The notes below the pieces were generated by a model. That model was not told the DNA's origin. It did not search any database and saw nothing but the letters and a program-made list of their open reading frames with translations. 64,000 nt of DNA, from contig OZ210884.1 of NCBI GenBank assembly GCA_964658305.1, forward strand, positions 2,728,001 to 2,792,000, in the 5' to 3' direction. The stretch is from Leptogorgia sarmentosa (lineage: Eukaryota). Positions 14,401 through 52,590 of the stretch are shown one piece after another (position 1 is the stretch's first letter; each line of letters opens with the position of its first letter). Position numbers and translations under genes: made by a program.

Positions 14401-17400
14401 ATACTTTTAATTACGAAAGTACATGTATTATACAAAAAAATTTAAGTAAGGCTTTTATGAATTCAGCTACATTTATTTGAACGATTTATTTGAGCGCTTT
14501 CTTCACTTTACTAAATCCAACGCGTAAACTTTTTTCTGCGCCACCCGGTATAATTTGGTGAACGAAATGCCAAAAGGATGCTCTTTACCATATAAACGAA
14601 TAATTGATAGCGGAAGCCATCTAATTTCCTCTCATGAGAGTGCGAGACGTGAAGTGTGATACCAGATTTCAAGCATTTAAAATATAATTATTATTATACT
14701 CAAAATGCAAATTGACATTTTCTATCATTTTTTTCAGCAAGCTGTTTTTACAATGGATTCTGCTACCCAGTAAGTACATACACACACATGAAGCATGACT
14801 AATATCCTCAATCAGATACAGATCGTGAATCTCCTTCACAACCTGTAACGAACTGTTACGGATTTATAAGAACACTTCACAATGGCAGAACGTGCAGTTG
14901 CTTTAGTTCTAGCAGTTCCTACGACTCGCGAAGAAGCTCATGCACAATTTGACAAACTATTTCGACCCGTAGCTATAAATAAGTGGGGCTTACGATCCAT
15001 GACAGGTCGTGAGTAATTTTATGAACCCATAAATTCCACAGAGATTAGGTATGAGCGCAAAATCGAACTTACTGACTTACTGACTGAAGTTTTTTCGAAC
15101 AACAATAATATTCAATACGATTTCTGGCAATATTTCGATTTCATTCTTCCTGGCTCACAATGTAGTTATATTTAGACCTTGCAGCTTTTCGGTGTAAAAT
15201 CTAAATACTTCTTTCAGCAGGATACATTATTACAAAATTATAACCGTGTTAATAATATGCATAAAAGTATTACTCGACTGTGATTGATTCATTTCAGTGC
15301 AGTTAATCCCAAATCACAGTGCAGTTTTGTGTTATCACAGTGCAATTTCGTATTATCACAGTGCAATATTGTGTTATCACGGTGCAATTTTCTCCTAGCA
15401 CTTTGAACCACGCTAAAAAAGTAAAAATTGTCTCCGAGTCGAAAACATAGCTTTTATCGTGAGTTGAAAATATAGCTTTAATCGTGAGTTTTCCAAAAAT
15501 CTCAAATAGCACTCGTCCTTGTTTCCTTTTACAACATGAAGTTTTAATACCAATGTTAATGTTTAAATCGATGTTTCCTTTTTTAAATCCAAAGTTACGC
15601 ATTCGATAACATAATGGCAATAGCCAGAATCGCATTGGATATAGTATACCAAAATTTGGACGATGATAATTTGGAAAGTATTTGGTGTAAACGTTCGCCT
15701 AACACATCAAACACACAGCTTGTAAGCAGTAGAATTCAGATCCCAAAGGACGCTGCCTGTAGAACTTTGGCACATCTTTCATCGAACTCAAGCTGAATAC
15801 GATCAGCGGACTTCACCTTCTGGGTATTTTAAAGCGCTAGACCGTACTAACTGGAATCACTGCTGACCGTTAACAGCGGGCACCGGGCTTACGATTTCTG
15901 GCCATGCTATACTAACACAAGTGGGAAATTATATTCTACAATATAAAATAAAATTCTGATTTTTTTACAACAGGATTTGAAGTGTTGATTTAGACCATGT
16001 TTCAGAGGGTTCTGTCAGTTCTTTTGTACAATGAACATGTGCAAAAGGACTTTCCATCTTATCAGAGGGTTCTGACAAGCACGATTTTTGTTCTACCACT
16101 ACAAAATGAATGAACTCAAAGCAATTATGTAAATTGAAACATCTTCAGATAAAGTAAAGTTATTTCGCGGATATATCTAAAGATATCGTGAATCGGAGGA
16201 CAATATATTTTGTGAAACGTCGTGATACACGTAGCACGTGTATACACATACACGTAGCTCTGGAATTTGATTAATAAAATTATGACAGTTTCCTTTCCAA
16301 ATAGCTAATACTACCTATATCGAGGAAATTGTTAGTAACGAATACCCATGAAATCATGACATATTAATTTCGTACAAGCAAATTGTTGACAAGGGTGCCG
16401 GAGAAACGGGGCAGGGAGGGCAACTGCCCCCTCTGCCCTAACATTGCGGGTGCCAGCGGTAGCAATTGACTATCCTTTATTCCCACAAAAAAGAATGATT
16501 AAATGTCAAAAATTTATAAAAGCATGAAGAGGCGTTTGTTTTTTCAGAAATGAAATGACATATGGAAGACTCGAGACTTGAATATTTTTCGGAGGGGGTT
16601 CCACAGATTCTCATTAGGTGCCTTTTCGTCCCGGCCCCCGCCGCTCTTCAGTCCCTGCGGCACCCATGATTGTTGATGAAATATAGAAATCTTTCAAATG
16701 TTTTAATATTTTCAAAAAAATCATGTATGAGAATATTGTTGAATAAGCTGCCAGCAACATACTGTTTTGTTTTGTTTTGTTTTAACAAAAACTATAAATT
16801 TGGAAATTTTTATAAAACCATAGCTACTGTTCATCTTTTGTAGTAAATTAAAAAGTCAGCAACCTTTGTTTCTCTGTCATGAAAAAAATTTCAATATTAT
16901 CCTTCAGGTAGATAGCGTCTGGAATGATGGACCTTTCAAAGAAATCACTTGTCAAAATATATCTAATCAATGCTCCTCTGGTGGTGAGAGCCTACAACTA
17001 GAAACAAGAACAATAACGCGAGAACCTTGTCCAGAGGTACTGTAGTATGATTGCTACAATAAATTCGTACATCATCGCAGACCCCCCACAACGTTAACTT
17101 GTTACTAATGAATAAATTTTACATCACCAAATAGTTCATAATTATGATCATGGTTTCAAACTAAATGTATAAAAAAGAAGGTTATCCGAATTTAAATTGC
17201 CATTGTGCGTACATATTACTAAAAGGAGCGGATAACAAGGAAAATATAATTAATCAGAATGTGTCATGTTAACAAAGAGATTACGACGAGTGTAATAATT
17301 TCACCCGAATTATATTAATAATAATTCTTACTATCTATTTTGTTAACTAAATTAAAATCCCATGGGGACTGAATTCCAATATGTTTAGTCTTAATAAACT

Positions 17401-18873
17401 TTTTCACTTTCAGTAGAAAATAATTATTAGCCCAACGGGAAGGACGATAACAATCGGAGGATAACAAATGTCTGATTGTTTGGGCGCTTAAAAAGGAAGA
17501 GTGACAGCGCACCCACCCCACCCCCGCCACCTCATAGACAAATTTCGCCATTTTTAACACAAAAATATTGGCGTAAATTGTTCACGTCATCGACATCTTA
17601 ACAAGTGAGGATATGGAAAATGGTGTCTCAGTTACGAATTTATAACAAAACTTTACACTTTTTTACTAAATATAGCTACTGCGAATACATACATGCAGCA
17701 ACCCCTCCTCGCCTTACTAACGTGGCAAGACTACACTCAACTCAATGCAACTATATTCTATGGCAACGTAAATGTAACATTGTTATAATAACATGGGAAT
17801 CAGGGACGGCGCTACAACGTTCATTTGGGGGGTACATAATTTATTCATAATTTGGCTTTCTGCCGACTGGTTGATTCTGTTGAAATCAGTTGTTCATTTA
17901 TTAATTTCAAAAGAATTCAGTCGGCAGGACGCCAAGAGATGAATATGCACCCCCCCCCCCCCCCCAAATTAAAGTTATAGCGCCAGTCTTGAAGGTAATT
18001 AATATTTTTCGGTATATTTTCGAAGATGAAGAAATACTTAAATTTGATGTAACGCATACGCCTAAAACGTTTTCTGAAACGTTTTACCTAAATACAAAGG
18101 TGTGATCACCTTTTCTTTAATAAGACCGTTTACAGGATAATACTGATTGGCAAATATGCACAAATTTAGCTAATCATAGAGAAATATTGCATAATTATGG
18201 ATAAACTACAATACTGGTTTTTATTATGCCATTATAAATTATTTAGCTACGCCTTATTAAATTTCAGAATTGTACAAGTTCAACAAACGCAAGTGGCTTT
18301 TACCATCCATGTTGTCGTGAATGCGGTAAGGTCAACAACGAATTATAGAAGGCAGTACGCGTCTCTTGTGGTCGTTGATCGTGCCCATGAGACTCTGCCC
18401 ATGCATGAGCAGGTATCCCGAATTGTACCACATGCGTTTCGTACATGATCACTCTTTACAGAACGCATTTCCAGTTTTGTACGCATACATGTGTTGACTG
18501 GTGATAAATCGCACCAAAGGCATGTGGGATATATAAATGGAGAGGTCTATATTAAAAACAATTGTGGCCACTGATTGGCCTTGAAATAAATTCTATAAAA
18601 TTCTTGCAATTTCCAGCCGCAAAGGAAGGAATTATCCTTGAAGATATAGATTGTACCTCCCATCCCGAAACTCTACGCGTCGTGGCAGTCCTGAATGGGG
18701 TTATTTGCACCTCAAAAGACTTAATCGCTATAAATAAATGTAGGGGAGATCACATTCCGTGGAAGTGTGTTCCCATTAAATCAAAAATTATCAAAGTAGC
18801 AATGATCTGTCCTGGTCAACCTGACGATACCATGGACTACGAAATCTACATAAAGTGCGGCTGGATTGACTGA
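11487..18873 (+). CDS. Gene B: paralog of A, secreted VWC + degenerate (6-Cys) cystine-knot protein; exons 11487-11559, [13580-13657, donor mutated], 14738-14769, 16908-17036, 18268-18325, 18617-18873; 182 aa without the bracketed exon
   Basis: The 32-nt and 129-nt exon sizes and the intron phases match gene A. Translation: MTCQNYCSLLGFIFLVHHIIWRVE/ASCFYNGFCYP/VDSVWNDGPFKEITCQNISNQCSSGGESLQLETRTITREPCPE/NCTSSTNASGFYHPCCREC/AAKEG..IDC..VIC..NKCRGDHIPWKCVP..MICP..IKCGWID*. Non-coding exon donor at 11014; AATAAA at 18961. Confidence 0.82.
11951..12415 (+). mobile_element. 5'-truncated LINE (L2/CR1 group) 3' end in intron of gene B
   Basis: VHALVTSRLDFGNALLHGL..VQNAAARIVT..RKRDHITPVL is a typical post-RT C-terminus. 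It is frameshifted at the LHWLP motif and ends in a (TAT)n tail at ~12393-12415. Confidence 0.85.
12568..12614. repeat. 9-bp tandem repeat (CACTGCCGT)x5
   Basis: Seen directly. Confidence 0.9.
13082..13532. repeat. Hairpin-terminated element
   Basis: Inverted GTTATATAGTTGGTGTCAAA / TTTGACACTAAACTATATAAC, followed by a ~140-bp palindrome at 13390-13530 centred on CGGCTTCGCCTCG. Confidence 0.8.
13763..14548. mobile_element. Tc1/mariner-like MITE
   Basis: TA|CCGGGTGGCGCAGAAAAAAGTTTACGCG...CGCGTAAACTTTTTTCTGCGCCACCCGG|TA. Confidence 0.9.
16390..16668. mobile_element. hAT-like MITE
   Basis: Perfect 8-bp TSD ATTGTTGA; termini CAAGGGTGCCG...CGGCACCCATG. Confidence 0.85.
17800..17991. mobile_element. 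hAT-like MITE (degenerate)
   Basis: CAGGGACGGCGCTA...TAGCGCCAGTCTTG with subterminal G and C runs; TSD matches at 6/8. Confidence 0.6.
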
Positions 18874-20060
18874 ATTGGGAGAGTCTAAGACCAAGACCAA
18901 AATTCCCATACCCTGGTACTGTATGAGCATTGAGATTTTAGTGCCATTGTAAAATTTATTAATAAAGGTGTGATAAAAAGAACTTTAGACTGTGGATGTT
19001 TTTTTTATTGCGAAGGAAATTGTTTATGGGAGATATTTTATTCTTTTCATCTTTTAATTCCAATTCTCCCAGAAGTGCGATTTCAACCTCATTGTCTATC
19101 ACCTCACAGTAATAGACAAATCTGATTGGTCGAAACAGAATCGATAAATCTCGTATCTTTTTGTGAGCGTGAGCTCCAGCAGGATACGGATTTCCCCCCC
19201 GGCAATTTATTCAAAATGGCGCCCAACAACAATGCAAATCCAATTTCTGACAAAGAATTAACGCAGAAAAGACAAGATTTGCATAACAAAAGCACTATAA
19301 AAAGTGAGAACGATGCAAATATAAAGTTGGGAGCGTTTTTGAAGGCTCGTCGGATTGAAAACTAATTACTTTCAGTGCCGACAAGGTGTATGACTTGTTT
19401 CGTGAAATTTAAATTTGCTTATAGCTCGGTGATAGACAAAATCCTTGTTCCGAAGGTCTGAGGGGTATACGAGATTTACCCCTCGAAGCCTGGAGCCAGA
19501 ATTTGCTGGCAAACATATATTATACTAAAAAGTTAACTTATGCATAGAGTAAAATGGAAGGTTCAATACTTACATAGTGCAACTCAATTATAAATATTAC
19601 ATAAAACTCGCTGAATGTTATTATTGTCAACTATACCTTAGTAAACAAGATTTAAACCTGTCATGCATGTTCGCGACCAACCAATCTCAAATCATTTTGG
19701 TGCGAATAAGCGAATCAACAACATGTAACTCTCCTGAATACTGAAAAGATAAATGTGCATGCACTATTGCGAATGAATAAAAAAGCATCTTGTAAAATTA
19801 ATAATGACTCTTGTTCTGCACTAAGTATAAGTTGAATATACCATTGGTTAATATACCGTTTTTAAATATCTTTGTTTCAAAAAAAAGAAATATATGTTAT
19901 TTACCAGTTGGGAGGTCCGTACTGGAAAATATTTTGTCGAGGTTTCAAAAACGGCCCGAGGCCGAAGGCCGAGTTACATTTTTGAAATATCCCGTGTAAA
20001 CGGAATATATTATAATATTCGCAGTATATTTACATACTACAACTGTCTATGAAAACTTAC

Positions 20061-20342
20061 CTGTTCCGCACTTTTTACCGCCGATATAGGATCTGGATAG
20101 TCAGATGTAGGACCATTCTCTCCGACAAAATGAAGACTACATATGTAGCTGTATTTAGTGCACACAAACCCATCGCCTCGGTGAGAAGCTTGTATCCATC
20201 GTTTTCGTTTCTCGCCATGGTATTTAGCCCCAGGAAAATGAAGAAAAAAAACTTCATCTCCGTTAGCGTTTTTCTTGAACAAACGAGGAAGCCTCGAGTC
20301 GTTAAAACACGTTCCCCAAGCGCACCTTTTTGTAGTAACCAT
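20061..20342 (-). mobile_element. THAP zinc-finger exon, probably a truncated PIF/Harbinger-ISL2EU-type DNA transposon remnant
   Basis: MVTTKRCAWGTC..FLHFP..RKRWI..YICSLHF is the C2CH THAP signature. It ends at a GTAAGT donor near 20060 with no recognisable downstream exon. Confidence 0.65.
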
Positions 20343-23276
20343 ACTATACTATATACCATAGAATTCTAGTGTTTGTCCTACTTTTCCAATTACCATAGCG
20401 CAATACCCCCCGCGGCGCTTGATGACAAAGATATCTATTGTCCTGACATATTCCAATACAAATGAACTATACAAAGATTCATTTTAAGATTTTTTAGGAA
20501 CTATTTGTAGTAACATAGCTATTCATTTCCTATGTCTTCTTCTGTCGCATTTTCAAATCATTTCTCAGGAAATAACATGTGCAATTTTCTAATGCCCCAT
20601 AGGCGAAACGAGATAATAAGAAATGATAATATTGTTATTGTTATCGTGCGCATCCCAATAGAATAATGGGGAAAATGCGAGACCATTGGACCAAACCTAA
20701 AGCTCGTGTCGGTAAGAGAACTGCAGAAAATTATTCAATTCATGCTCGATGTTGGTGACAAATTTCATTGATATTATTAAATATTTGTACGTGATATGCT
20801 ATATCTCAGATCCGGCAATTGTCAAAATTGATTTATCGTCATAGCCAGAATTTACCGATAGTGGTTGCATGTCTGGATGCAGTAAAAATATTTATTATAG
20901 CTCGGTTATAATGAATGGAAAATTCCGGTTCCGTTCATGCATTTTTATTATTCAACGTTTTGTATCTCATTCTGGTTAATCACATATCCACAACCACACT
21001 CATTTCGAATTAGCTCGCGTGCAAACGCGCATGGAACCTTGATGAGTTACTTTTTTCAGAATTAGATATAAAAATATACACGTTTTTCATACCGCAACCT
21101 CAACATGAAGAAAATAGCGGGACTCTGTTATGACATTTTTCATCTGAATATTTTGAAATTAGGAACTATTGACAACAAATTCATTAACACGAATGCACTT
21201 GAGAAAAAACCCTTCAATATTGATGCATTTGCTTCAATATTGACGTTTTTCCACTCAACACCTCTCCACTCAACGTTTTTCCACTGACGTTTTTCCACTT
21301 TTTCCACTTGTTAAAATTATTTATTTTCCCGTTCGTTTGAAGATACAAACATGGTTAAAATGCGCTTTAGACACTGAAATATTTCGCCGAGAATGTTTTG
21401 TTTTATTCATACTGATGAGACTTTGTTGATGTCTTTTTATCGCTGTAAATACCTCTAAAATATCCCTTAGCCTAATAAAATGAACTTTCCTGTGTTCTTT
21501 ATCGCCTAAAATCGTTTTGAATATTTTTAAAAACCGGCCATTGAATTTTAAGAAACGAAAACATTGGCTGTATTTGTATCTACGAGAATGCGAGCGGTCA
21601 GTACCGTAGGATACGGACCACTTGGCAACCAATCAGAAAGATCTATTTAGAAAAATATTTTGTTCAGGTCTGAAAAACGGCCCGAGGCCGAAGGCCGAGG
21701 GAAGTTTTCCAGACCGAGACAAAAAATTTAATATTTTTCTGTCCGGACCGACCTAAACGGTAAAGAATTTTTTTCATAAGAAATTCCAGTGTAGTGAACT
21801 AGATTTGAGATGAGTTGTGTTTGTTTACTTTGTTACTCCATCGCAAGTATCCATGGCTGCTAAACAGCAAAGGCGAAGTGAAAAATGCCTTCAGTTTTGG
21901 TACAATTGCTGCCTTTTCACGCAACATGACAATCAAAAAAGGTAAATCTATTTATCCTCCTTTCCATTCACGATAGAAATTGTTGAAATATGCTTTAATA
22001 CGGCAGCGAAATATTTCACCGAAAATGTTTGCTTCGCTCTAGAGATTATTTCTATCAAAATGGAACAAAATTTACTTTAAACTTATGTAAATCAACTGGT
22101 TTAAAAAAAGGATGAATTTAAGTTGGGATAAACTCCAAGTTTTCGATATTTATTGAAATTTTTTGCCATAAAATAAGCATACAAACATTTTTATATTTGC
22201 TTCGGCCATTACGTATTTAGGATTCCGGACCGTGGTCAAATATCGTAAAATTCCGCCCGCTACTGCAGCCAATCAGATTGCAGAAAACGTTAGATTCCAC
22301 CCGCTGCTGATTTGCAAAAAAATAGAAACTGTCTTTGTTGTAGATTTAATGTGCATGATCATTTCAATGGAATTTACATGCCTATATTGCTTTCTTTTAC
22401 TCAATCTAAGGTTGGCAATGACGAAACGCCTCGCCTGGGGGGTAGGATATTCTCTTGTGTTTAGTTGGGGTTTTTCATCCCACCTGGCGAGACGAAATTC
22501 CACAAGAGAGTTACTTATTGACGTTTTTTTCGCTAAACGTCTCACACCAAAATGGGAGAAAATCACGTGGTACGTTTCCCGCCGTTGTTTTCGTCTTGTT
22601 CCTTTACGTTTTGAATGCGTGGATACACCTCTAGAGGTAATCTGATTACCTCAAGATATATATTATGCACTAAATAATGAGTCAATGCACGTTCTAGGGA
22701 AAATTAATGGCATGAAGGAATAGTTCCTGTAAAAAATGTGATAGCACCCAGTATAGAGCAATCGCATTGCTCAGTATTATGAGATGTTCAAAGCGATCGC
22801 AGGCCTGATTTTACGTCATCGTTTTCGAAAACTTCCGTTTTCGCCTGGAGAGCGTTTTTGAAAACCTCCGCCTTCCGTTGCCAAAAATGCCGTTTACATG
22901 TGAACGCTACGCCTAAACGGAGAAAAAATATCCACGCATTCTCGAAAATATCCGGATACGTGTGGACGGGGCCTTAAAGTTTTTGCGATTGTTTTCCTGA
23001 TGGGGCAGTAAAAATTGCGTATTATTTCCGGAGGGTAATACGGGAAATCCTGTCTCCCCAACAGCCAAACAGGTTGCACTATTCGCCAAACAAATGCCTA
23101 CCATATAATACAAAATGAAATGATAGATAGCAAGGCTGAATAATAATACGAGCTTAATACAAATAAAATGCCACGTAGTCATCTAGCTACTGTAACTAAT
23201 CCCTATAGACATTCCGTTCACACTGGGGCTTTAAACAATGATATCGATATTAATATTTCGAATAACATTATTAATA

Positions 23277-25070
23277 TCGCAATAACCAACAGCAATTAAT
23301 TGCGGAACACAAAGAAGTATGAAAGCCTCATGATTGTTTCAACGCAAATAGCCTTCATTCCGTGCAAAAATAAATTCTTCATTATACATTTTCGAAAATG
23401 CTTGGGAAAATTTGAGACGGAATAGTGTGAATAAAAATGCAAAAATCGCTCAAAAACGATGATTGTCTAAACGTCATCGTCATCCATGCTTGTATAATTA
23501 CGATAATTGAGCTATCGCGGAGGCGTGCACGGGAACTATAGATCTTGTCGTGAGAGTCAATGCCCAGCAGTAATCTCTTTAGCAACCTAAAAAACAAACA
23601 ATAATTAATAACCGAACTCAGAACAACCGATATAGTAATTATAAATATCTAATGCAGCCCCCAAATTTAAGAAAATTCCGATCATTTTACAATAATTCAA
23701 GTGTTTCAAGCTAATTATCAATCGTACAAATGATGCCCTTCAATAATGGAGATGACAAAATTTCGTTACCTCATAGCGCTTGCAATACGATGCATCCGTT
23801 CCCTTTAATTAATATTTTTTTACAAAGCCCCCCTCGCCAATAATATTCTATGTTAAACATAATTACACTAATTCTATTAATTTTCTTAAATGATATTATT
23901 CTATGGCTTTTTAAAAATTCTCTATTCTGATTGGTTGACAAGCGGTTGGTAAAAATCGAAATCTTGACCGTGGTCCGTATTTTCCGTATCTGGACCTGTG
24001 TCGCGGATGTCGTTTATCTTGGGGGAAACTTCGCTTCGCCAACAGAAAAGAATTTTGCTTTTCAATTTTCCAATTTTCTGACTAAATCATTTTAGATTGA
24101 GGATGTATGTCTACCGTATACTGTTACCCAGAGAAACTGATGATAGCCGATGTTAATTCGCGCGAAAAGAATATGCTCAAATACTCAATTCAGCCATGTA
24201 ATAAACAGTTTATTGACCTCGCTTGTTCGGTCTGTATTGTGAAATATCAGACCTCAATCTTTTGCATTGACCTCGCTCCTTCGTCGCTTGGTCCATACTA
24301 AAAAAACCTCGGTCTGATATTATATAGTACAGACCTCACGCTCGGTCAATAACTCTTTATTATATACTTATGTAAATCTCAAGCCTGTCCATAAGCAGTT
24401 GGTGTCATTTCACGTGCCGCAAATTTTCAAAATATGACTGTAGGTATAGGCGTATAGCCTAGCTGATGTTTATAATTATTTATTTTATATTTTGAAGTAC
24501 TTTAAATTTTTGTCAGCGGTTTCATAAATGATCAGAATTTACTTTTATTTTGCAAAAAACTATGCAATCAAAATAATGGTTGATCAAAGGACAGTGAAAG
24601 AATCTTTCATTGATAGTAATAGTAGGTGTCGCAATAACAAACAGCAATTAATTGCGGAACTTTGGGCTATAAATATGACAGAAAGCAATGTGAAAGCGTT
24701 ATGATCGTGCAAAAATCCTTCATACCGTACAAAAATAGAATTCTCCATATTCAATTTCGAAAATGCTTGGGAAAATTTGGGAAGGAATAGTGTCAATAAA
24801 ATGCGAAAATCGCTCAAAAACGACCATGCATATGCTTGTGGATCATTGAGCCATCGCGGAGGCGTTCAAGGGAACTATGGATCTTGTCGTGAGAGCCAGT
24901 GCCCAGCAGTAATCTCTTTAGCAACCTAAAAAACAAACAATTAAACACGGAACTCTGAACAACCGATATAGTAATTATAAACATCTAATTCAGCCCCCTG
25001 AATTGCGAAAATTACGAGGATTTTATATTAATTGAAGTGTTTTAAGCTAATTATTAATAGCACAAATAAT
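23277..25070 (+). repeat. Older direct duplication of ~450 bp (23277-23730 and 24628-25070)
   Basis: Shared TCGCAATAAC..CAGCAATTAATTGCGGAAC..GCCCAGCAGTAATCTCTTTAGCAACCTAAAAAACAAACAAT..CAGCCCCC. Confidence 0.85.
23899..24360 (+). repeat. Dispersed hairpin-terminated element; second copy 31553-32022
   Basis: The two copies are clearly alignable (CTGATTGGTTGACAAGC..CGTGGTCCGTATTT..TATTGACCTCGCTTGTTCGGTCTG..CACGCTCGGTCAATAAC). Confidence 0.85.
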
Positions 25071-25383
25071 GTCTTTGTTCTAATAAACGTTGTAGCAACA
25101 AATTATAATCTCCCAGTCGACCCCAACATTGACCTTACATATCATTAACGTAGCGCCACGGATACTTTGGCTAATTCTCGAGTTCATTCGTCCAAAATTA
25201 ATAGACTTATTTGTATACCCTACGCTCCTTTCTCACCAGAAGCACGATATGTGGCTTAAGAACAAAAATTTTTTTTTAGGCGTGTGATTGAACACAAATA
25301 CAGAGTAAGCATTGCTCATTAGCTATGATGATTGAGCTATGGCTGGGCGTACCAGAGAAAATAATGAGATCGTGTGGGTTAAC

Positions 25384-25694
25384 CAGTGGCGTAGGCAGAC
25401 ATTCCTTTTTTTTTGGGGGGGGGGGGGGGCAAGCAAACGCGGAGGGCGCGATGCCATGTAGGGGGGTCCGGGGGAGAATCCGGGAAAATTTTGAAATCTG
25501 GAGTCCCTCAATGGCGATTTAGCGTGTTTCTGGGGTGAGATTTGTGAAAATGTTTGGATTGAGATTGGTAGTCACATGGGTAGTCATCGCCCTCCCTAAT
25601 TTCTACCCGGATTTCATCTTTTTACGGCGCAGTCCTTGGCCTATTTGGGGGGCTGAGCCCCCCCCCCCCGTGCTCTCCCTTGTCTACGCCACTG
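25384..25694. mobile_element. hAT-like MITE upstream of gene C
   Basis: CAGTGGCGTAG...CTACGCCACTG; TSD GGGTTAAC/GGTTTAAC (7/8). Confidence 0.8.
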
Positions 25695-26019
25695 GGTTTA
25701 ACGCACGAGAAGAAACTCTCTGGCAACCAGAAAAACAAAATAAACACTAGCTCTCGACAACCGAGAGAAAAATGTATCGAATCCACCCCCGAAGTTTCAC
25801 AAGTAGAGGATGTTTACAATAATTGAAATGTTTTTTTCAAGTAAATTATCACATATTACAAATAGTGTCTTTGTATGCAAAAAGTTGAAACAACAAAATC
25901 TTTCAGTTTCTAGCTGCTATGAAAAGGAACTATACACAGCTTGACTACCAATTATGCCCGCGCGTCAATTATTAAATAACCATCTGCAAGAACCTTTTAG
26001 TTCTTTCAATTCGCCACTG

Positions 26020-26026
26020 TATAAAA
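26020..26026 (+). promoter_or_regulatory. TATA box of gene C
   Basis: TATAAAA lies ~110 bp upstream of the GTAAGT donor at 26133. The homologous position in gene B (~10900) reads GAATAAAAGCA. Confidence 0.6.
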
Positions 26027-27157
26027 GCAGCACATCACAACCACTACAATACATTCAACTCAAAAGACTAAAGAGATCAGTAAAAGAAGCGAAGAAATCG
26101 TCATTTGAAAGCAGGAGAAACCGACCATCCATGTAAGTAATAAATAAATTGTCTATATAGCACGCACGTATAAGCTATAGTAAATGTACAAAAACAGATC
26201 TATAACCATACATAAAATATTTATAGTGAACATATTAATAGACATAATATTTTTATAACTGGCTTCTATCTCTATTTTGCGCAACTACTGATTGTAGCTA
26301 TTACTGCTAGATCTGTAAATATTTGTTTAAACTTTTCAAAGTTCGAACAGTCAAATTGATATTTCTATAAAAATATACAGTATATCAGACAAGAAACGAT
26401 CTTCTACAGAAAGTTTATCAAAAATAAGGCGCTAAACCTGCATTTTCCTGTTCAAAATTTAAATATAGTTGTTATAGTTACGATGATTTCTTTCATTTGT
26501 TAACGAAAAAAACTTTTTACTTGATCCGACCTAGAGTTCATAATCTAGTTCAACTTACCAACTGATTGCAAAACTGCTATCCTGGAGGGACCCGATCCTT
26601 GTAATCGAAAATTATAGAAAATATGGCAAATCACAAATGCCATGTAGCTATGGCCCAGTTCAAAACGAATATACGCACCCAAAAGGAATAATTTCCCGCA
26701 CATGCCTAGAAAATACCGCATGAAACAACGTAGCCTAAGAATTACAAAATATCTATATTCCACCTAAGTTAACGTTAATATATAAAAGTTTATCGAAATA
26801 CAATTTTTAACTTTGAATTGCCTTAAAAGTTAATTGATTTAAATTTGTTTTCAAAAGAACTTAGTAGCAAGAACATGAATATATAAATATTTAAATTTAA
26901 GAAAATTTCACGTCACAGTGAGACTCGGGGAATTACCAAAACTTTCAAATTACCTTAATAATTTTACGCAGTCCCATGTTTACCTATATAAACCTGTTAT
27001 GAGAATAATAGCTAAGGCAGAACAATAGTACTTGAAATAGGCTATCCTAACTTAACCAGGCCCACATAAATTAGAAATGGTAGCAGAACGACAGTTGGCC
27101 TTAATGCATTAACGATTTATGATTACAATATTTTTAATAGTATTTTTTCCGTATAGA

Positions 27158-30100
27158 ATGACTTCTAAACAATTGGTATCTTTGTTGGCATTCTTATTTC
27201 TTGCTCCACAAATCATTTGGAAGGTTGAAGGTAGTTATTCACAAATTTATATTATCGCATTAAAATTAACAAAAAAGCATATTCTAGCTATGTAGCAAAA
27301 CGGAGGAAGAACACGAGAGATGTAAATATTCATAGCTACCAACCGATAAATGCTTTTTCAGTGTTTTTTTTATACGTGTAACATTCGTATAATTAGAAAA
27401 TACAATAAAAAATACAGTCACGTATCTTTTGCAAAAAAATAAACTAGCTACGTTTAAAATATTAGAGTATAAATTCAATGCGGAAATTTAGGTACAGCTG
27501 TTAAACACCCGTTGTCGATCGCTTCTCGTACCTACTTGGGTCAAGTTTAATTCACTTGTATTTTTGCCTGCCAAGATTTTCTTATTTGGGTTGTTTCAGT
27601 TTTGTTAGAAAACCTAATGACCGTCTGTAGGCGTATACTTTATGTAAGCCTTCGTTCTTATTTCCAACGTCTTTCTCTTACTTCGGTTGCCAGCAGATAT
27701 TCATTGCGTCAACAGAACACAGTTGCAAAAAGTGTTCAACCTTCCTCCGTGTAAAATTTAGAGTTTTCAAATTTTCCTCAAAATGAATACGAATTCTGAA
27801 TTTCAAATTGCAAAATATATGAATTACGTCATTCAAAATTGGCTTCTTATTCCCATTTTCCACTGATTTAGCACTATTCTGCTGAAACCTGCCTCAATAT
27901 CACCTCACATATTGGAAACCTTCCTCACGGGTGGTACCCGCAAACCCACAGCTTTTTTGCAACTCTGCAACAGAAACTTTTAAATTGCAATATTTTTTAA
28001 ACAAGGTGCACGTGTAAAGTTATTCAAGTAATTATTCAATTATTCAAAAAATAGTCACAAGTAGTTAATTATATTCTTGGATTAATCGTGGATTGTTTAC
28101 TTAATAGGCTGTCCTACTACACCGTCGGGAAATACGACATCAACAGCGCCACCACAACCGCGTACAACAACTGACGAAGGTAAGCGCGATTGGATAAAAA
28201 AAACCAAGTGAAAACTAAGAAAAAAACTTTCTGGTACCATCTCCTTAACGATTTAAGGATTCCACAGTGAAACTCTCTGTAATAGTGAGATTCAGATCGT
28301 TCTTTGGTTGCAAGTGCTAGCAATGAATTTACCAGAGACGCTAAACCCTTTAGAGAAATATACGTTTAACAAAGTCACTACATTCAACACTATTATAGTC
28401 AATTATTCAATTAAAAAACTGGAAACTCATTATGCTATTACGCCATATATGCATTAGTAGTCGATATTTGGTAGCTATATAATATTAGTTTGAAGGTTAA
28501 AGTTTACAATATCATTATACCAGTTTTCAAAAGACCGAGAATAAGTACATATTACGAGCAATAATTCGTAAAAACAGAAGTAAAATTTTCCATAAATACT
28601 AATTGACAAGTATACATTTTTATGATATCACCTCTTTGTGCAAATTTCGTGAAAATTCTATACATTTCCAGTTCTTAAATTATCTATAAATTGGTCGAGG
28701 ACTCAGAATTGTGACTTAAAGCTCTAATTACACACCTGCATGTGTTATTCTAATTCTAACAGTTCTGAATCAATTAAAGAATGATTGTTAAACTATTATA
28801 TTTTCCAATGATTAATATAATATTATATTCATACGATTGTTTTCTAATTATTTTTTAGGATGTCGCTAAATTCGTCATGTATTATGAATTGACTCATTTG
28901 CTGTCCCATATAAAGATGTATTGTTCCATGCATTAATTCGCTGATTTTATTCTTAATAGGACCCACTACTTCACCAACAGGAAATCAAACATTAACCGCA
29001 AAACCAACGACAACACCATCGCATAAAACAACTGAAGGTAGGTAACCAAATAGGAACAAGGTCGATTGAACAACGCGTTTAAAAACTTTACAATACAACT
29101 GTCCTTTGCCTGCAAGTACTACTAAAGTTTGAAATGTTGCAAATTCTCCATCCCTAACTTAGCTATATGGGCTGCATAAAAAAAACTTACACAACTTTTG
29201 TATCTTAGTTAATGGCCCTTACAGATTTATTGCTGACATTTTCATAATGGCTTATGAAAATGTATGGCTTATAAATTCAAATTAAGCCTTTAGCTTCTTT
29301 CCAAATTATTGTAAAAATAAGACTTCATACGAATCGGTAAAAAAATGGCATTCAACGCCGCATTTTTCGAAAGGCGAAAGAGGATGGAATGAAAAAAATA
29401 GACGGTAGAAAAGTTAATTTTTTAACTAGCTTCTGTCCGGCCTTCCTGGCTAGAGCTTGACAATTGCATAATCACATATCCAACACAATTTTGTGGACCT
29501 GTGTCATTTCCAATTTATTTGCAACTTATTTAATATCGAATTATTCACCTCGATCCTTTGTAACAACGATGCTTCTATACTTTGTAAAAAAGGTTTTATA
29601 GACACATTGTAAGGTAGATAGAAATATATTCTGATATTTGTCTAATATCAACAGGCTCCAATATCGAGGATGAATGGGAGATTTCTTTCGTTGAACAAGG
29701 TACGTGCTTGATCCAAAGCGAATTTATTATTATCATTATATAGAATGGTTATTATAATCATGTTAAAATCGATTGGAAATTCCAGGAATTTACAATTCTT
29801 CCAAAGGAAGTAAAGCGCACACATTTTCATGCAGCCAATTAGATTCAGATAAGGAACCAAAATAGCCAATCAGCTTTTAGCGAGGATTGGACAAAAACGC
29901 AGGCATGAAAATAAATAATAATGTTTATAAACATGTTTTTGTTTATACACTTGATTATTTCAAACAAAATTTGGTGACAGGAAACAAAAACGGGAAATAC
30001 TGAATTAACCATCCAGCATTTCTAATTACTAATTCACAAAATTCTGCTGCTCTCTATTACGATTTGACAAAGTTCATGTGGCAATTACTGTCATACTACA

Positions 30101-33100
30101 ATTGCAGCTTTCAAAAGCAAGCAGGTGGATGTGGGTCTTTTGCAAACCAAAATGACTTCGGTTTTAAAATTGTTTATGTTTCCAAAATGAATATAATAAA
30201 ATGGTAATTACGCTTCGTTTCGTGCTATTTTGGTCGAAAATCACACTTTTGATCAGAAACTTCATTCTCGCTTCGAAGACGCACATTTTTTTCCCACTCG
30301 GCTTTGCATGAATTGAGACCATTGAACTATATAAAACTGGAAGGCTACTTCCGGTCGAAAACTTGAAGCCAAAATATGCAAAATTGGCCCTAGTCTTCTC
30401 ACGCAATGTAAACACGGCCAAAACAAATCATTCTGTGTTTTTCGGAAAAAACCTGGAAAAACCTTGCAAAAAATAACATTAAAAGATGGGAATCATTCAT
30501 GTTTAAATAAATTTGACGAAGATTTGGTCCTCTTAATAATGGCCAGTTTTTGTACCAGATTTTGTATGGTAACGTCTGATAAAACTAGCGCTTTTTGTAG
30601 AAAAAACCGATCAGCAGTGATAAGCATCGTGTTGAGGTTTGCTATAAAGCTGGGTTAAGCCGTGATTTTTGGTAAATTTTTTATATTTTTCCAACATCGT
30701 TTACCCACAGGCCATTTCCATTGATAGACAGTTTTCGAATCATTATGTCAAGCATTTGAGATCCGTTTTATTCCAGGCGCAATCGTTTTCCGCGTGTTTA
30801 CCTTACAGAAATTCATTTGATCGGCATAAAATTGAAATGTTCTGTATTCATAGCACAAGAAATGGCTTTGAAACAGTAAAAAAACAGCAAATTCATTTCT
30901 CTATCGCATCGCAAGTTCCTACGTTCTCTTTCGACAACATGTTGTTCACTTGTTCGCTACTTTCAACCACGCGAGAATGTCACGCAGCTGAACTCGCGTG
31001 AAATTACCTCCAGACACGCGTGCCTCCACGCAAAATTTTTAATTTATTTCCCGTTAATATTAAGGTAGCCTTCCATATATAGTTCAATGATTGAGACCAA
31101 ATTGCACTGCACTCAGTATATACCGACATATCTGTCCGTTTCAGCATGATCGTACTACATGCTGAATTGGGTGTCTTTTAGTGCACTGGGATTTAGGAAT
31201 TGACCATTATACAATGAAGACTTGTTGACAAATGTTGAAATTTTTCTTCCAGGAGCAGAAAATATTACATGTACACCAACACAATCAATGTCAGGAAAAG
31301 CTTCACCTTCACCAAAATCACCACCAGCTATACCAAAACCATTTAAAAAACCAAAAGGTACGAGCTCGAATGAAAAATAGGAACATTAGGCATGCGTAAT
31401 AATCACTTAGCTACTGACTAAGATTGAAAAATATCAAACTGAGGTCTTGCTGTATTAACCGTGCGATATGGAGGTTACTACAGCTAGACCGATGTTTGAT
31501 GTTTTCCCGTACAGAACGAACAGTCGAAGTCAGTAGTTTGTTATATTTTATTATATGGCTTTACGAAGCTCTCTACTGATTGGTTGACAAGCAGTCCGTA
31601 AAAACCCAATTCCGGACCGTGGTCCGTATTTTCTGTATCTGGACCGGTGTCCCGGATGTCGTTTATCTGGCGGGAAAATTCGCTTCGCAAACAGAAAAGA
31701 TTTTTTGCTTTTTAATTTTCCAATTTAAGATAAAAATTTCGGACAACCAAATTGTTTTAGATTGAGCATGTATGTCTACCGTATACTGTTACCTAGTGAA
31801 ACTGATGATAGCCGATTAAATTCGGGCGAAAAGCATATGCTAAAATACTCAATTCAGCCATATAATAAACAGTTTATTGACCTCGCTTGTTCGGTCTGTA
31901 CTGTGAAATATCAGACCTCAGTTTTTTGCATTGACCTCGCTCCTTCGTCGCTCGGTCTATACTAAAAAACCTTGGTCTGATATTTCACAGTACAGACCTC
32001 ACGCTCGGTCAATAACCCTTTAATATGGCATATGTGCGTTTTGAAATGAGCTTAGGCGATATACAGGAATAAACCAAATATTATCATACTGGGGCCGGTT
32101 GTATAAATCTCTTAACTACCCGTTTCGCAATTAAAATACGGGTTTCTGATTGGTCAATTTTTGTACTTAACTATATATAGTTAACTTCAACTTTATTTTT
32201 ATACAACACTGAACTTCGTTAAACTGACAAAAAACAGTTTCGCATCCTTCAATTTCAAACTCTAGTTATTAGAACTCGTTCTCACAACGCCTCTCGTCGT
32301 TCACTTTAGCACTTTCGTATTTCAATAAACAAAATTTCATTGAATTTCAATGTTTTTTGTGATTGTTTTCTTGATAGCGGAATAAAAATTGGGTATTGTC
32401 CGTGGGCAATACGGGAAAATCCTGCCATATATTACGGCATTCGCAAAAAAAAAGCATCTTGATTCCTGCATTTCCTTTGAAAATCGTCAGTCTAAATCAG
32501 AATAGATCAAAACTGGAGTTCATTATGCAGCAAAAAAATCTGTTTTGAAAACATGCCAAGGAAGCTCCAAAAACTTAAATACTCGTCTACATAATAGCCT
32601 GTATACTGATCTAAACTGCTGGGCTGCTTTTTTATGATTTGTAAATTGATTTTATCGGAAATTTAAAGAAACGTGGCTCATTTGAAAAAAATGGGCATGC
32701 AAAGAATAATTAAATTTCAGTTGAAATTCAGTGGAATTTCCAGCTTCTAAAATACACTGCAAAAAATATTGTGCAAGAAATAGTGAAATAGTGACACTTT
32801 GCCATAACAAAGACATTGATAAATCATAATCGCACATGTTAACTGGGATTACACAAAGTAAAGAAAGTATGCCTTCGTTACGTGCGTATCTACTATGCAG
32901 CGTTCTCGACAAAAAAACATCAATTATAATTGTATATTGGAATACTAATTTTTATCAACCTCTTACATTTTCCAGGTGCCGGTATAGATTGCACTTGCCA
33001 TCCAGTACTTGGGGTTTTTCAAATAATCCGTCGAAATCGATTGATATGCACGTCAAAGTTTGTCTATGCAAACAATGAATGTAAACCTAATCCACCCTGT

Positions 33101-33211
33101 GTTCCTATTGTCATAAAGCGGATCAATGTTCCAATGATATGTCTGAAACCACTTCCAAATGTAGTTGTAAAAGGCGTAGTGGTCATCAAGTGTGGTATAA
33201 TAAATGGATAA
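27158..33211 (+). CDS. Gene C: paralog of A/B, secreted Thr/Pro-rich mucin-like protein with degenerate cystine knot, 187 aa; exons 27158-27230, 28108-28179, 28960-29037, 31253-31357, 32976-33211
   Basis: All introns are phase 1 GT-AG and the total is 564 nt. The signal exon MTSKQLVSLLAFLFLAPQIIWKVEG is the same size (73 nt) as in B. Three T/P/S-rich exons follow. The last exon GIDCTC..LICTSK..NECKPNPPCVP..MICL..IKCGIING aligns with the last exon of B. TATA at 26020, non-coding exon donor at 26133, AATAAA near 33275. Confidence 0.82.
31553..32022 (+). repeat. Dispersed hairpin-terminated element, same family as 23899-24360
   Basis: Direct alignment by eye; the ORF-track peptides at 24107 and 31762 are near-identical. 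Confidence 0.85.
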
Positions 33212-34758
33212 GTAAAATCTGTTTTTTTTGTAAGGTATTATATCTCGGATCTTTTTTTTCTTTTATTTGTTCGAAATAAATTGCGAATAGGCTAAAAGGC
33301 GTTCTAGAAAATCGATTTTTGTATTCTTAATTCTTTTCAATAAATACTGATATAGTTTCAATCGTTATGCGTATTTTGTACCTGTCTTGTCTGATGTCAA
33401 CTTGACTTCTAAGATTGAATCGAAATTGATGGTTTGTAGCGTATGCTAGAGCAGAACAGAAGGTACCGATTTTGGCGGGCTTCACAAACTCACTTAGGGA
33501 ATAGGGATTTCTCGGCGGCAAATTTTCAAAATGCAATTCTGAGAGCAATTTCCACGGTGGAAAGGGAACCCCGTTTTGTTATTCTTTTGCGCCATTTTTA
33601 TTTTCGAATGATCCGAAAATGATGTGCAATCGTAGTTTAAAATACTACTCGCAGCTAGGTTCTTTAAAAACAAGCACGTTAAACTTGGCGCTCAAATTCA
33701 CAACAGGAAGAAAAACTTGTCATGTGATTAAAAGGAAATTTTTTCTCCATTTTATTGGTAATAGAATTGTTTATGAAGATTCCAGCAAAGTTAGCTACTT
33801 GATTTACATTTTAATAGTGTTAGGGTTTACATTATGTGATTTACACACAATTTATTAAAATATAAAAACCTGACTGTGGTCAACTGATATATCGTTTTCA
33901 TGCATGATTACATAATTGTATTTATATATAGTAAACACAAAAATAAAGTCAATTCAAAAGGTCAGCAAGTCGTGATACAGATCTACGTTACAGTGTAGCC
34001 ATACAGTAGAAAACGGTACAGTACAATACAATGCACTACAATACAATATAATACAGGGGCAAATTGGAGAGGGGGAGCTTTCTTTTCTTCTGTTTTGCAT
34101 ATTTAAAATTCAAAATGTCTAAATTTCATTTCATTAAATCTCTTTCCGTTAAAAGGAAATAACTCCGGTAGAGTAAAAAATGCCGTAATGACGGCAAAAA
34201 TAGCTGGCTTTTTGAGCTTATTACCACAAATTTCAGACATGGTTGCCTTAATTTTTGAAGAAATTAACTGCACAAGTCAATAATGATGATATGAAACCTA
34301 TTATAATTTACATGGCAATGCCAATACCTCGTGTTTGGTCAAATTTCATTCTCTAAGTTTATAACCTGTGTAAAACCGTACAACTCTATATACGGCCGAT
34401 AGACTTTAAGATAAACTTTTATAATGGCTTTTATGTCTCCATTATTGATCTGTCGCCCGTATATAGGGCTAATTTATTCAAGTTTTTGTGAAAAGCCATT
34501 CGTCACAAGGTTAATACTGCACTTGTACGTGTTTTCAATGGTTATTTGTATTTATACTCGATATATATGCCCGAAAGTTTGAACTTCTGACACACTGTCA
34601 AATTGTTCACTATAAAAATTACCGTCCTTCGTTAACAATTTGCCAAAAGCACCCCCTCTTCCCACCCGTTTGGTTTCTAGGACAACCCTGCGAAATACAA
34701 TACAATTACTCTATTTGTATCACGACTTGACTTAAATCAAATGACTTGCAAACAGTTT

Positions 34759-37700
34759 CTAGTTTTCTGCCATGTTTCCGTTGCCAAACGCCATCATTTT
34801 GTCAGAGGGATATTGCATGGGGATCACCTCAAGGGATTTTGTGGAATTTTTTGCGCGACGTTTTCTTACCAGAAATACCACGGTTGCGGTAAGCAAGAGA
34901 ACAATGAGCCCGGCACACACCAGTATGGCAATCATGATTGTATTTGGACTGGACTCAACTTCATCATCTACAAACAAAATGAAACAATTTCATGTACATC
35001 TTTTCTTGAAAAGTCGAATTGGGTAGAATCCAATTGTATCGTTTATGCCGAGTGGGTATATTGAGTTTTTGCGGCTTCTTCATGTTTTATTAATTACTTT
35101 TTGATGTTTTTTCCCCACTACCTGTGCCGTAACGCCGAAAAAGACGTTGTTCATAATTATATCTTTATCTCGGAATATTGAATATGAAAATTATCTAAAG
35201 CCAAAAATGAATTGAATTCTCCTCAAATTAGAATTTTAGCGGATAAATGTAACGGCGAATTTAACAAGAGAGTTTCGTGCCTTATGATTCCGGCTCTCAG
35301 CTAATCTTTCTGTGCAAAGACTCTCTATCTACTTATAATGATGGAGTGATTTTGTTTTTCGGGTCTGCAAGAAATTTTACACGAAAGTTGGAACTTGAAA
35401 CGGTGCATTCATGATACAATATAGCTGCAATCGATATTTTGAAAACATATTTTAAAAAAGAAAATTTAAATAAACTACAATACTGGAAGATTTTCGTTTT
35501 TTTAGATTATCTTAGATAATTTCGTTGTAATTGTGTTCTAAATTTAAAACTTAAACTGTTTCATGTTGATAAGTCTAGCCTTATTTTGATAACAAAAACC
35601 AAACAAATGAACAATTTCAGACTCCGCTGGTCAATTGAACCGTAATGTTAGCTTGGACGTCGGAATTAAGATTCAAGACAAGGAAATAGCATATCTCGAA
35701 ATGTCAACGCAAATCACCAAAAAGTTCCAAAAGTTATATAAATTGACAAAAAAAGATGCCTCATATAAAAGACGCCTCATTGTCTCAAACAAAATGCCAC
35801 AGACATTTTTATGACTGCTATACTAATGTCCACCTACTATCCCTTCATGCATTCTTTGCGATATTGATTAAAAGATGGCTAATTAATGGATCGTTATTAT
35901 TTAACAATTGGACAATGAGACCGAGTTGAAGCATAAATAAATAGTATAAATTTTATATATATTATTATTATATATATTTATATATATTAGTATAAATTTT
36001 CAAGTGACTATAACATTTCCTGCAATCTGATTCGTTAAAATTTGCTCTCTCTGGTGTTATAGTCACTGGGCAGTGACTATAAAGATTTTTCATAATTAAA
36101 ACTCAAAATGGCCGCTACGTTTGCTGAAGTTTCGCAGGAGGAAATTGACAAAATTAAACAAGAAAGCATCCCCAAGAAAGTTAAACAAGCGATAAAATAT
36201 GGTTTAAAAATCTTTCAAAGTAAAATTTTTATTTATTGTTATTTTTATGCAACAAAACTGGCTTTTTTCACTAGCAAAGTGGTGATATGAGCGTGAATTA
36301 TTTGATGTAAACAAACTATAGCAAAGTAAACAAAACTTGAATTTCTACTTAAAAGACAGTTTGAATCAAATCAGTTTGACTTGGGAATTTATACTAAAAC
36401 AATTAGTCGCCTCAGGCTTCGGTGATTACAAGCTCATAGTCACCTCGGCCCTTCGCGCCTTGGTGACTATGAGCTTGTAATCACCTCGCCTTCGGCGACT
36501 AATTGTTAAATAGACGACGGCTGAGTATAGCCAATCAGAATGTAGCATTTGTAATAGACGATGGTTGGGTGTATACTAAAAAGAAATAGCCAAACCGACA
36601 AACCTTGATCTTTGTTACTTTCCTCTTTAATTTTTTCTCGATACATGATGGGACCAATAGAGAGTTGGTAACTGCGTTCCGTAGCATCTGACGCATCACG
36701 ACGTTTTCTGTTGGAACAAGTTGTACTTCGGGCACAAACAGAATCCTGTGTATTGATGTTACAAAGTCGCAGATCACAGTGGATGTAAACGAACGTGTGA
36801 TTGGCAACAAATCTGAAAACTTGGATGCTAAATCGATGACTCTGCTGTAAGCCAGTCGTGTGATGGATGATAGTTGAGTCTTTGTCACAGCTATAAGCAA
36901 GCAAGTTGAGATTTTTAGTTTTGTTAGAAAATACTTGTCAAGTGTAAACATTTTGAGGAGTGGTAAATGATAATTCCGCGACTCATTCCCTGGGGCGGCG
37001 CCAATTTGTAGAGGCTGGGAGGGGGTACGGTGAACACAGAGGACGTGATATTTCCACGGAGATTTTGCAGCATACATACCTCCAAAAAAAATTGCTATTT
37101 CTGTGGTCTCTAAAAGCTATTTTTTACCAGATTAGACAGGTGTGTTGGAAATTCAAAAGCAACAAATCCGAGTGTTGCCCGAAAAGGTCGTGCAGGCAGC
37201 TAAACATGCACCCATTGTTAGATTATATAACTAGATGCACCTTTTACGTCATTCCAGTATTTCACAAAAGCTTTGTGTTCTTAGCTAATCGAATATCTCC
37301 AATGTTTATATGTTGATATGAACTAGCATTTTGAATAGTCGTACCCTCGCCAACCCCATTTTTCCGGCTTACGATTTAGATCAATCTGAAAGTTGGCTTC
37401 AGTCCAGGCGAAAAACCAGGCATTAATTGAAGGGGGGACAAAAACATTCGTATATTCGTGTTTTCTCCTTATGATTTCGTTTCCCTTGCAGTAAATAAAA
37501 AAACTGATTGCAAACATCACTTACGCTTCAGATATGAACTCGTATTGCGGTGTATCATAAGGCTTGCTACTTGGTGTTGCACGGCATGTTTCGGCTCGCA
37601 CAACGATGTCGGTGTTGCTGGTGTTTAAACCATACTGGATGTTAATACGATCCTCGAAACTTTTAAAAGCAGGATATTTCTCTGAAGTGCTAGAGAGGAA

Positions 37701-51700: not shown

Positions 51701-52590
51701 AAAAAAAGAATACTACCGCTTACTGTCTTGAATTTTCGTGCAACCTTTCGCAAGATTTTTTATTTAGGCTATTAAGAGGAAAAAACTAATGCCTGAGGTG
51801 GTAAAATGTCATATCATTGCCATAGTTACTTCTCAACTCCCACATGGCGCTTTACTTCGACCTTTGCTCTCTATCCTTTGTGCTCACATATCATTGGTCG
51901 GTCAATATATTTGAAATATTTGAACTTCGAACGACTGGCAAAGGTGTAGTTGCAGTATATTATAATTTACATATATTTTTAGATCCTAAAAATGTGTTCC
52001 TATATAAGTCCTATCATAGAATCACAAAACTTGTTTATACTATAAAATAAACAGCATATGACTAATTTATTTTGGTTACGTATTTACTGTCAGTGTGCGA
52101 ATGCGTTCACAGTCATATACTTGAATAAATTTTTAACATGGATTATATAAGGTCATAAAATATTGAACAGCGTATAAATATAGGACATATGTATGGAAAC
52201 AGTCTAAAAAATGTACATATTTGATCTATAGGGTAAGCCACAATTTTACAAAACGCTCCCGCCATTTTCATGCAAAACTTAACATAAGAGTAATCTAATT
52301 TCATGTAGAAACCAAGTCCAAGTGTCTTCTGTAAGCGGTTGCCGCTTAGCAGTTGTCCTTAATAAACAAAAGTTCTGTTGACACTATTAATACTAAAGCA
52401 GATGATAGCATTAGTCTAACCAAACATCGCCCGGGCAAGCCATTATATAGTAATGCAAACACGCCATAAAAGTGTCGCACTACAAACCACAAAAAATTAA
52501 GAATTAATTTGCGATTATGGGTTCTGCTTTCATAACTAAAAATACGTTAATGCCACAAGGGAAATATTGACGCAAATTTCGGGCGGGTAT

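Follow-up and report, generated by a model that had tools for sequence, protein, structure and literature searches.

Can a growth-factor cystine knot domain lose the disulfide that closes its ring and persist as a folded domain under selection? The question arises in a stretch of 64,000 nucleotides from Leptogorgia sarmentosa (assembly GCA_964658305.1, contig OZ210884.1, positions 2,728,001 to 2,792,000 of the forward strand), here called the window. This is animal-type DNA with 36% G+C and spliceosomal introns, and it contains three related genes within positions 746 to 33211: A on the minus strand and B and C on the plus strand, with A and B head to head. We consider it probable that B and C carry in their last exons a domain of the sclerostin/DAN type from which most of loop 2 and the knot cysteines III and VI are missing, and which folds as two fingers without a knot, held by three disulfides (I-IV, II-V and a finger-tip bond); this reading includes the history and function proposed below. 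Neither exon has all six of the knot cysteines by which a growth-factor cystine knot is recognized, and because of this we treat B and C as derivatives of the DAN/sclerostin domain, not as members.

Loss of two knot cysteines and of loop 2

The last exons of the three genes have the following features.

746 to 1053, minus strand: last exon of A, a complete eight-cysteine DAN/sclerostin-type cystine knot; Cys codons begin at 1012, 949, 916, 904, 856, 814, 763 and 757
916 to 902 and 763 to 755, minus strand: motifs CVGWC and CDC of A
872 to 880, minus strand: N-G-I in loop 2 of A, its Asn eight residues past knot Cys III, an offset matching the LRP6-binding NxI of sclerostin
18617 to 18873, plus strand: last exon of B, a six-cysteine knot-less domain
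18652, 18706, 18739, 18766, 18808 and 18856, plus strand: Cys codons of the B last exon; a His codon (CAC, 18751) stands at the offset of Cys III and a Trp codon (TGG, 18862) replaces Cys VI
18739 to 18753 and 18856 to 18864, plus strand: motifs CRGDH and CGW of B
32976 to 33211, plus strand: last exon of C, a knot-less domain with Cys codons at 32990, 33047, 33080, 33098, 33140 and 33191; an Ile codon (ATA, 33197) replaces Cys VI
32996 to 32998, plus strand: extra Cys of C, beside Cys I
33080 to 33094 and 33191 to 33199, plus strand: motifs CKPNP and CGI of C

An earlier note on this DNA proposed the un-knotting from these six motifs, all of which occur as it described, the two of A outside the coordinates that it gave. 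The A exon matches the Pfam DAN family (E 3.3e-6, 27.5 bits against a cutoff of 22) and not Pfam Sclerostin; a protein search with it gave none of 24 candidates at E<=0.01, a weak negative. Its cysteine spacing (20,10,3,15,13,16,1) equals that of sclerostin (13,10,3,24,13,16,1, derived from PMC9136615) at five of seven intervals. The N-G-I of A stands where sclerostin has Asn93, at Cys85+8 (PMC9136615), in the NxI motif that is the main sclerostin contact on LRP6 (PMC7585440). The probability of such a match by chance is 0.008 at the fixed place and 0.10 anywhere in the loop.

The spacing is 17,10,8,13,15 in B and 1,16,10,5,13,16 in C (18,10,5,13,16 when the extra Cys is left out). Cys III and Cys VI are missing from both, and Cys II and Cys IV are separated by 8 residues in B and 5 in C, against 19 in A, so that 11-14 residues of loop 2 are gone, in agreement with the shortening that had been noticed, and the NxI motif is absent from both. 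The Cys pair of the DAN-type finger-tip disulfide, which joins loops 1 and 3, is present in all three genes at the 10 and 13 spacings. The TGG of B is one base away from a Cys codon; C has ATA at this place. The other six cysteines, described as kept, are indeed kept in B, and C has seven.

The six-cysteine register is fixed by the shared 10, 13 and 15-16 spacings, by the sclerostin spacing and by the ranges of the structural alignments described below, and the spacing and structural alignment also support the assignment of the lost cysteines as III and VI. A shifted MAFFT register, obtained with untrimmed A, was rejected on spacing and structure; trimmed A gave the six-cysteine register. Identity is 45% between B and C and 25-27% between either of them and A. 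Compared with shuffled sequences, the B-A alignment has a z of 4.6 (2 of 3000 shuffles reach its score) and the C-A alignment a z of 6.4 (0 of 3000). Together with the structural alignments, this agrees with the claimed homology of the B and C last exons to the knot of A, which at the sequence level appears to be above chance, if weak.

The pairing of the losses is not strong evidence by itself, since two lost cysteines would be disulfide partners by chance in one case of seven (4 partner pairs among 28 pairs). Separate losses in B and C had been envisaged. B and C are sisters that share the deletion and a K-C-G ending, which makes one ancestral loss the simpler reading, and the loss of III and VI is likely a single event.

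Predicted fold

We predicted the B and C last exons with AlphaFold2 from 3- and 4-row alignments, both with A included. Both models are all-beta, with a mean predicted local distance difference test (pLDDT) score of 85.9 for B (five models, 85.9-60.1) and 82.3 for C (82.3-40.7). Foldseek ranks sclerostin (6l6r) first for both (E 1.6e-3 for B, 1.4e-2 for C), and the rows listed are knot growth factors; the ring-less VEGF-A variant 1mkk is fourth for B. B and C are thus predicted to adopt the two-finger antiparallel beta fold, as the earlier note had expected.

A second look at the Foldseek candidates with VIA-align also places sclerostin closest. B aligns to 6l6r with a Z of 9.1 over 71 residues (root-mean-square deviation 1.8; 958 chains aligned, 11 at Z>=8), and C with a Z of 8.2 over 70 residues (deviation 2.3; 316 aligned, 2 at Z>=8). 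For B, PRDC, NBL1, the vWF CK domain and the Gremlins tie with sclerostin within 1 Z. If the alignment ends are gapless, the end ranges put the first and last cysteines of B and C on sclerostin Cys80 and Cys165, and the B Trp and C Ile on Cys167, which is knot Cys VI. The three-disulfide connectivity is predicted from cysteine positions, the fold output holding no disulfide geometry. An ESM Atlas search with B has a CTCK cluster as its first match (0.91, with low recognition, a weak result) and gave no usable match for C, and PDB sequence searches returned only rows with E>0.4.

Constraint on the trimmed domain

B and C appear to have diverged under purifying selection, judging by their codons. 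Identical positions number 42, 49 and 25 of 72 at codon positions 1, 2 and 3 (58, 68 and 35%; Fisher p=1e-4), and 10 of 12 four-fold sites differ. The ratio of nonsynonymous to synonymous differences per site (pN/pS) is 0.50 (bootstrap 0.36-0.68), with pS saturated. In a substitution-only neutral simulation run 3000 times from B to the observed identity (0.53), both frames stayed open in 6 runs and all six cysteines were kept in none. The selection proposed in the earlier note therefore finds support between B and C; between A and either of them pN/pS comes near 1, the value expected of neutral evolution (see below).

Relatives are few. A library of 1.84 billion representatives gave two matches, and a near-length search gave three among 30 candidates. 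One protein, P0001, has the same sequence as B and gives no further information. The other two, P0002 and P0003, come from other assemblies as fragments of 51 amino acids, over which each matches C at 78% identity; they keep CKPNPPC, KCGII and all four cysteines covered. The differences among C, P0002 and P0003 fall mostly on finger 2, outside the Cys and loop motifs. A profile of B and C used to search for longer relatives gave none of 103 at E<=1, a weak negative. One metagenome scan gave none in 418 stretches; two of 132 stretches in a second scan were rejected as chance matches opposite bacterial or phage-like open reading frames.

Gene structure and RNA

Four sequencing runs, as contigs, were mapped on 11000 to 19200, and three of them on 13450 to 33420; the RNA runs come from one study (three samples). 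None of the runs listed is recorded as RNA; we class X1, X4 and X5 as such by their GT..AG joints, of which X2 shows none. Signal peptides were read from the sequence, not by a prediction tool. The remaining exons and related features of the three genes are listed here.

5746 to 5665, minus strand: signal peptide exon of A (modelled: open frame, GT-AG)
4320 to 4289, 3306 to 3178 and 1877 to 1826, minus strand: vWC-like exons of A (modelled likewise)
ending at about 11013, plus strand: 5' untranslated exon of B, from RNA loose ends
11487 to 11559, plus strand: B exon 1, with ATG and predicted signal peptide; RNA joint 11557-13578 in all three RNA runs
13580 to 13657, plus strand: B exon 2, a Ser/Thr-rich spacer
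13658 to 14737, plus strand: B intron 2, retained in RNA, with an in-frame stop at 13798-13800 (codon 98)
13761 to 13875 and 14437 to 14550: arms of an inverted repeat in B intron 2, 21% of the intron, with clustered A>G changes
14738 to 14769, 16908 to 17036 and 18268 to 18325, plus strand: B exons 3-5, vWC-like module; GT..AG joints in all three RNA runs
ending at 26132, plus strand: 5' untranslated exon of C
27158 to 27230, plus strand: C exon 1, signal peptide
28108 to 28179, 28960 to 29037, 29655 to 29699 and 31253 to 31357, plus strand: C exons 2-5, Ser/Thr/Pro-rich stalk

The A model has 200 amino acids and consists of a signal peptide, a ten-cysteine module over three exons and the eight-cysteine knot exon. 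The B model has 208 amino acids if spliced as modelled, with a signal peptide, a Ser/Thr spacer, a nine-cysteine module and the six-cysteine last exon, whose joint to exon 5 is present in all three RNA runs. We take the upstream module of A and B to be vWC-like, from a ten-cysteine pattern ending CC-xx-C; A has ten cysteines with this ending, and B, which lost two of them and gained one, has nine, so that cysteine loss there is unpaired. Pfam gives no match on the single middle vWC-like exon of 43 amino acids. The C model has 202 amino acids, with a signal peptide, four Ser/Thr/Pro-rich exons and the seven-cysteine last exon, and no vWC-like exons. The products of B and C are likely secreted and sclerostin-like.

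Paralogy is clear at the DNA level (A/B vWC-like exon 76%, B/C signal exon 77%, B/C spacer exons 69-76%), GT-AG borders occur at 13 of 14 modelled coding introns, and tblastn and blastn found no fourth copy within the window. Among the paralogs, third-position identity is 58-62% in upstream exons (e.g. 3178-3306 and 16908-17036) and 35-46% in the last exons. A and B, which lie head to head, may have undergone gene conversion or exon shuffling.

For C, joints from the untranslated exon through exons 1, 2 and 3 are found in two of three RNA runs (depth 4.2 and 8.7), and one RNA contig, 33013-33361 (depth 2.9), covers the last exon. For B, the untranslated exon (11013) is joined straight to exon 2 (13580) in two of three RNA runs, as loose ends, bypassing the exon with the ATG and signal peptide.

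A retained intron in gene B

The reading frames had been described as intact. This is true of the last exons; in RNA, the B frame stops at codon 98, ahead of the vWC-like and knot exons, within retained intron 2. The donor of this intron, AAG|TTAGGT against AAG|GTAGGT at the paralogous exon of C, is the only non-GT donor in the 14 modelled coding introns. The same T is present in an X2 contig (13508-13788) and in an X5 contig.

X1, X4 and X5 have GT..AG joints at B introns 1, 3, 4 and 5, and none is listed for intron 2. All three RNA runs have an unbroken contig from intron 2 into exon 3 (13841-14772; 14529-14772; and 13580-14769 joined to 16908), one of which spans B exon 2 through the retained intron to spliced exon 4. 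Depth in the three runs is 81, 46-54 and 33 in intron 2, 12, 10 and 4 in intron 3, and 90, 44 and 29 at the joint of exons 1 and 2. Downstream re-initiation was rejected, the first in-frame Met past the last intron stop lying beyond Cys IV.

All nine A>G differences listed in intron 2 lie inside the repeat arms, seven of them opposite U in the duplex. This suggests a cluster as expected from A-to-I editing of a lasting RNA, with the arms being a repeated element and the comparison having no DNA control from the same animal. The A>G at 13799 turns the early TAG into TGG; a TAA follows and the frame still closes. The product of the retained form (window positions 13658-13800) ends with 47 residues encoded by the intron, in which RRKK comes after a hydrophobic segment (highest hydropathy over 19 residues, 1.8), and could be a small membrane-anchored Ser/Thr-rich peptide, or this could be chance.

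In the animals sampled, the B RNA keeps intron 2 and its frame closes at codon 98. B therefore likely lost its domain recently, and the copy still producing it is likely C.

Relation to known cystine knot proteins

A resembles sclerostin and SOSTDC1 in its eight-cysteine pattern and spacing, in having no dimer Cys and in NxI at Cys III+8, and sclerostin is the best structural match for B and C. It differs in a loop 2 of 15 residues rather than 24, in its N-terminal vWC-like module and in matching Pfam DAN, not Sclerostin; B and C differ from sclerostin in lacking Cys III, Cys VI and loop 2. A survey of knot proteins in basal metazoans reports SOSD orthologs from sea anemone and coral and describes the six knot cysteines as invariant (PMC4079206), against which B and C look odd. 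CCN proteins are secreted and have a vWC domain followed by a C-terminal knot (PMC2683937). CCN proteins and the C-termini of vWF and mucins share with A and B the order of a vWC-type module upstream of a knot in a secreted protein; unlike CCN proteins, A and B have about 200 amino acids and no IGFBP or TSP1 domain, and their vWC label is taken from a cysteine pattern.

The loss is not without precedent. The invertebrate IL-17 type T1C naturally lacks the 3/6 bond and keeps its fold on the remaining bonds, other invertebrate IL-17s lost the 2/5 and 5/6 bonds (PMC11087794), and chordate IL-17s lost the 1/4 bond (PMC4517768). The principle of paired loss of a knot bond in nature is thus already published. 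T1C lacks the same Cys pair as B and C; it belongs to another branch of the superfamily and the account of it mentions no loop deletion, whereas B and C have the DAN-type finger-tip disulfide and a DAN-type paralog alongside. We found no natural III-VI loss in a DAN/sclerostin-type protein in the open literature, which is weak evidence of absence as subscription papers are mostly outside it.

Engineered cases exist too. Sclerostin C142R alone is poorly secreted, and in C142A Cys84 is glutathionylated; the double mutant C84A/C142R can be obtained and binds LRP6 more weakly, and deletion of the loop abolishes binding (PMC3843708). VEGF-A C61A/C104A (PDB 1mkk) is ring-less, with a wild-type-like structure and thermodynamic stability that is not lowered (cited in PMC2759523). 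These proteins lack the III-VI bond as B and C do and can be made, and they are laboratory variants, whereas B and C are natural, appear to be selected and combine both changes.

Alternative explanations

B and C could be decaying duplicates that lost the knot under relaxed selection and are both drifting to pseudogenes. The dead donor, retained intron and early stop of B fit this, as do the pN/pS of about 0.9 against A, the unpaired Cys changes in the vWC-like exons of B, and the low RNA cover and missing vWC-like exons of C. We nevertheless think decay of both quite unlikely, as the frames and six cysteines were kept while B-C silent sites came near saturation, three divergent C-type sequences keep the pattern and the predicted folds are confident. 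Capture of the last exon from another knot family already without the 3/6 bond, e.g. IL-17 type T1C, would explain why divergence is so much greater in the last exons than in the upstream exons that the genes share (third positions 35-46% against 58-62%), and IL-17A chains do appear in the fold list of C at a Z of 6.3 and below. It is highly improbable, given the intron of phase 1 that precedes the last exon in each of the three genes, the finger-tip Cys pair and 10/13/16 spacings shared with A and sclerostin, the B-A and C-A similarity above shuffles, and, for C, Z scores of sclerostin, NBL1 and PRDC more than 1 above IL-17. IL-17 chains are not among the best 50 rows for B, and the exons do not match Pfam IL17.

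The disulfides may instead have been rewired, with the extra Cys of C or a stalk Cys forming a new bond within or between chains that replaces III-VI, e.g. in a covalent dimer. Cysteine numbers invite this, with seven in the last exon of C, nine in all of C and 15 predicted in mature B. So do the fold relatives, many of which (vWF CK, Norrin, PRDC) are dimers, with the interchain Cys of vWF and Norrin just before Cys IV. A, B and C have no Cys at that place, sclerostin, whose fold is nearest, is reported to be monomeric, and B folds as well without an extra Cys, all of which makes rewiring very unlikely.

Several results also weigh against the knot-less domain that we prefer. B and C match neither Pfam DAN nor Cys_knot at E<=1 or E<=10, no Foldseek match of either reaches E<=0.001, and including A in fold alignments of three to four rows may bias their models. 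When A is compared with B or C, pN/pS comes to 0.91-0.92 (0.66-1.34) in an alignment that is distant and gapped; relaxed selection on the B/C stem, positive selection there, or misalignment could each produce such a value. The odd Cys count of the vWC-like module of B also fits decay, and the NxI of A is one short motif spotted after the fact. C exons 3-4-5-6 are unjoined among the joints listed for the three RNA runs, and cover of C is low. As for the retention in B, contigs drop rare forms and depth is a poor measure (the X1 downstream joints, at 172-207, are deeper than its intron), 11 joints and 73 loose ends exist beyond those listed, and a minor in-frame isoform of 182 amino acids that skips exon 2 is possible.

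Other features of the window

The remaining features of the window are given below.

1957 to 2554: example of several inverted-repeat elements in the window
8442 to 9806, between A and B: tandem duplication of about 686 bases with 97% identity
20040 to 20348, between B and C: THAP domain remnant (Pfam E 8e-7), whose RNA cover comes from diverged copies
23277 to 25071 (77%), and 23893 to 24363 with 31545 to 32026 (86%): local duplications
36506 to 41363, minus strand: gene for a protein with vWA and ZP-N/ZP-C domains
52540 to 54802, plus strand: BTB/ion-transport potassium channel gene
57498 to 61979, plus strand: alpha-galactosidase gene

Proposed history, function and significance

Under the knot-less reading, a gene like A, with signal peptide, vWC-like module and eight-cysteine knot, would have been duplicated first. 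One deletion in the ancestor of B and C would then have taken out loop 2 together with Cys III. The orphaned Cys VI would have been replaced next, because a free thiol hampers secretion. The B/C ancestor would have ceased to use the surface of loop 2 and the III-VI bond, the fingers being kept for another partner, and the trimmed domain would have stayed under purifying selection as B and C diverged. The function is the weakest step. The domain may serve as a secreted binding module. In this view it no longer makes the contact to LRP5/6-type propellers for which sclerostin uses the NxI of loop 2, and instead binds its partner with the surfaces of the fingers, which in C would sit on the end of a glycosylated Ser/Thr/Pro stalk; we offer this as a tentative suggestion that is open to doubt.

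If the knot-less reading is true, the window would contain a natural, selected version of two separate sclerostin designs, removal of III-VI and removal of loop 2, beside an intact parent, and would offer a test of what the knot is for, folding and receptor contact as opposed to stability. A scaffold of 76 residues and three disulfides could be a simpler frame for engineering. Domain searches miss such knot-less derivatives. A bolder version, which we regard as unlikely, makes A an undescribed vWC-sclerostin-like hybrid that binds LRP-type propellers via NxI; its duplicates would be lineage-specific knot-less and loop-less three-disulfide minis on mucin-like stalks, with a finger surface diversifying for a new partner and B switched off by a single donor change. 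If true, this would be a natural switch from a Wnt co-receptor antagonist to a new binding scaffold.

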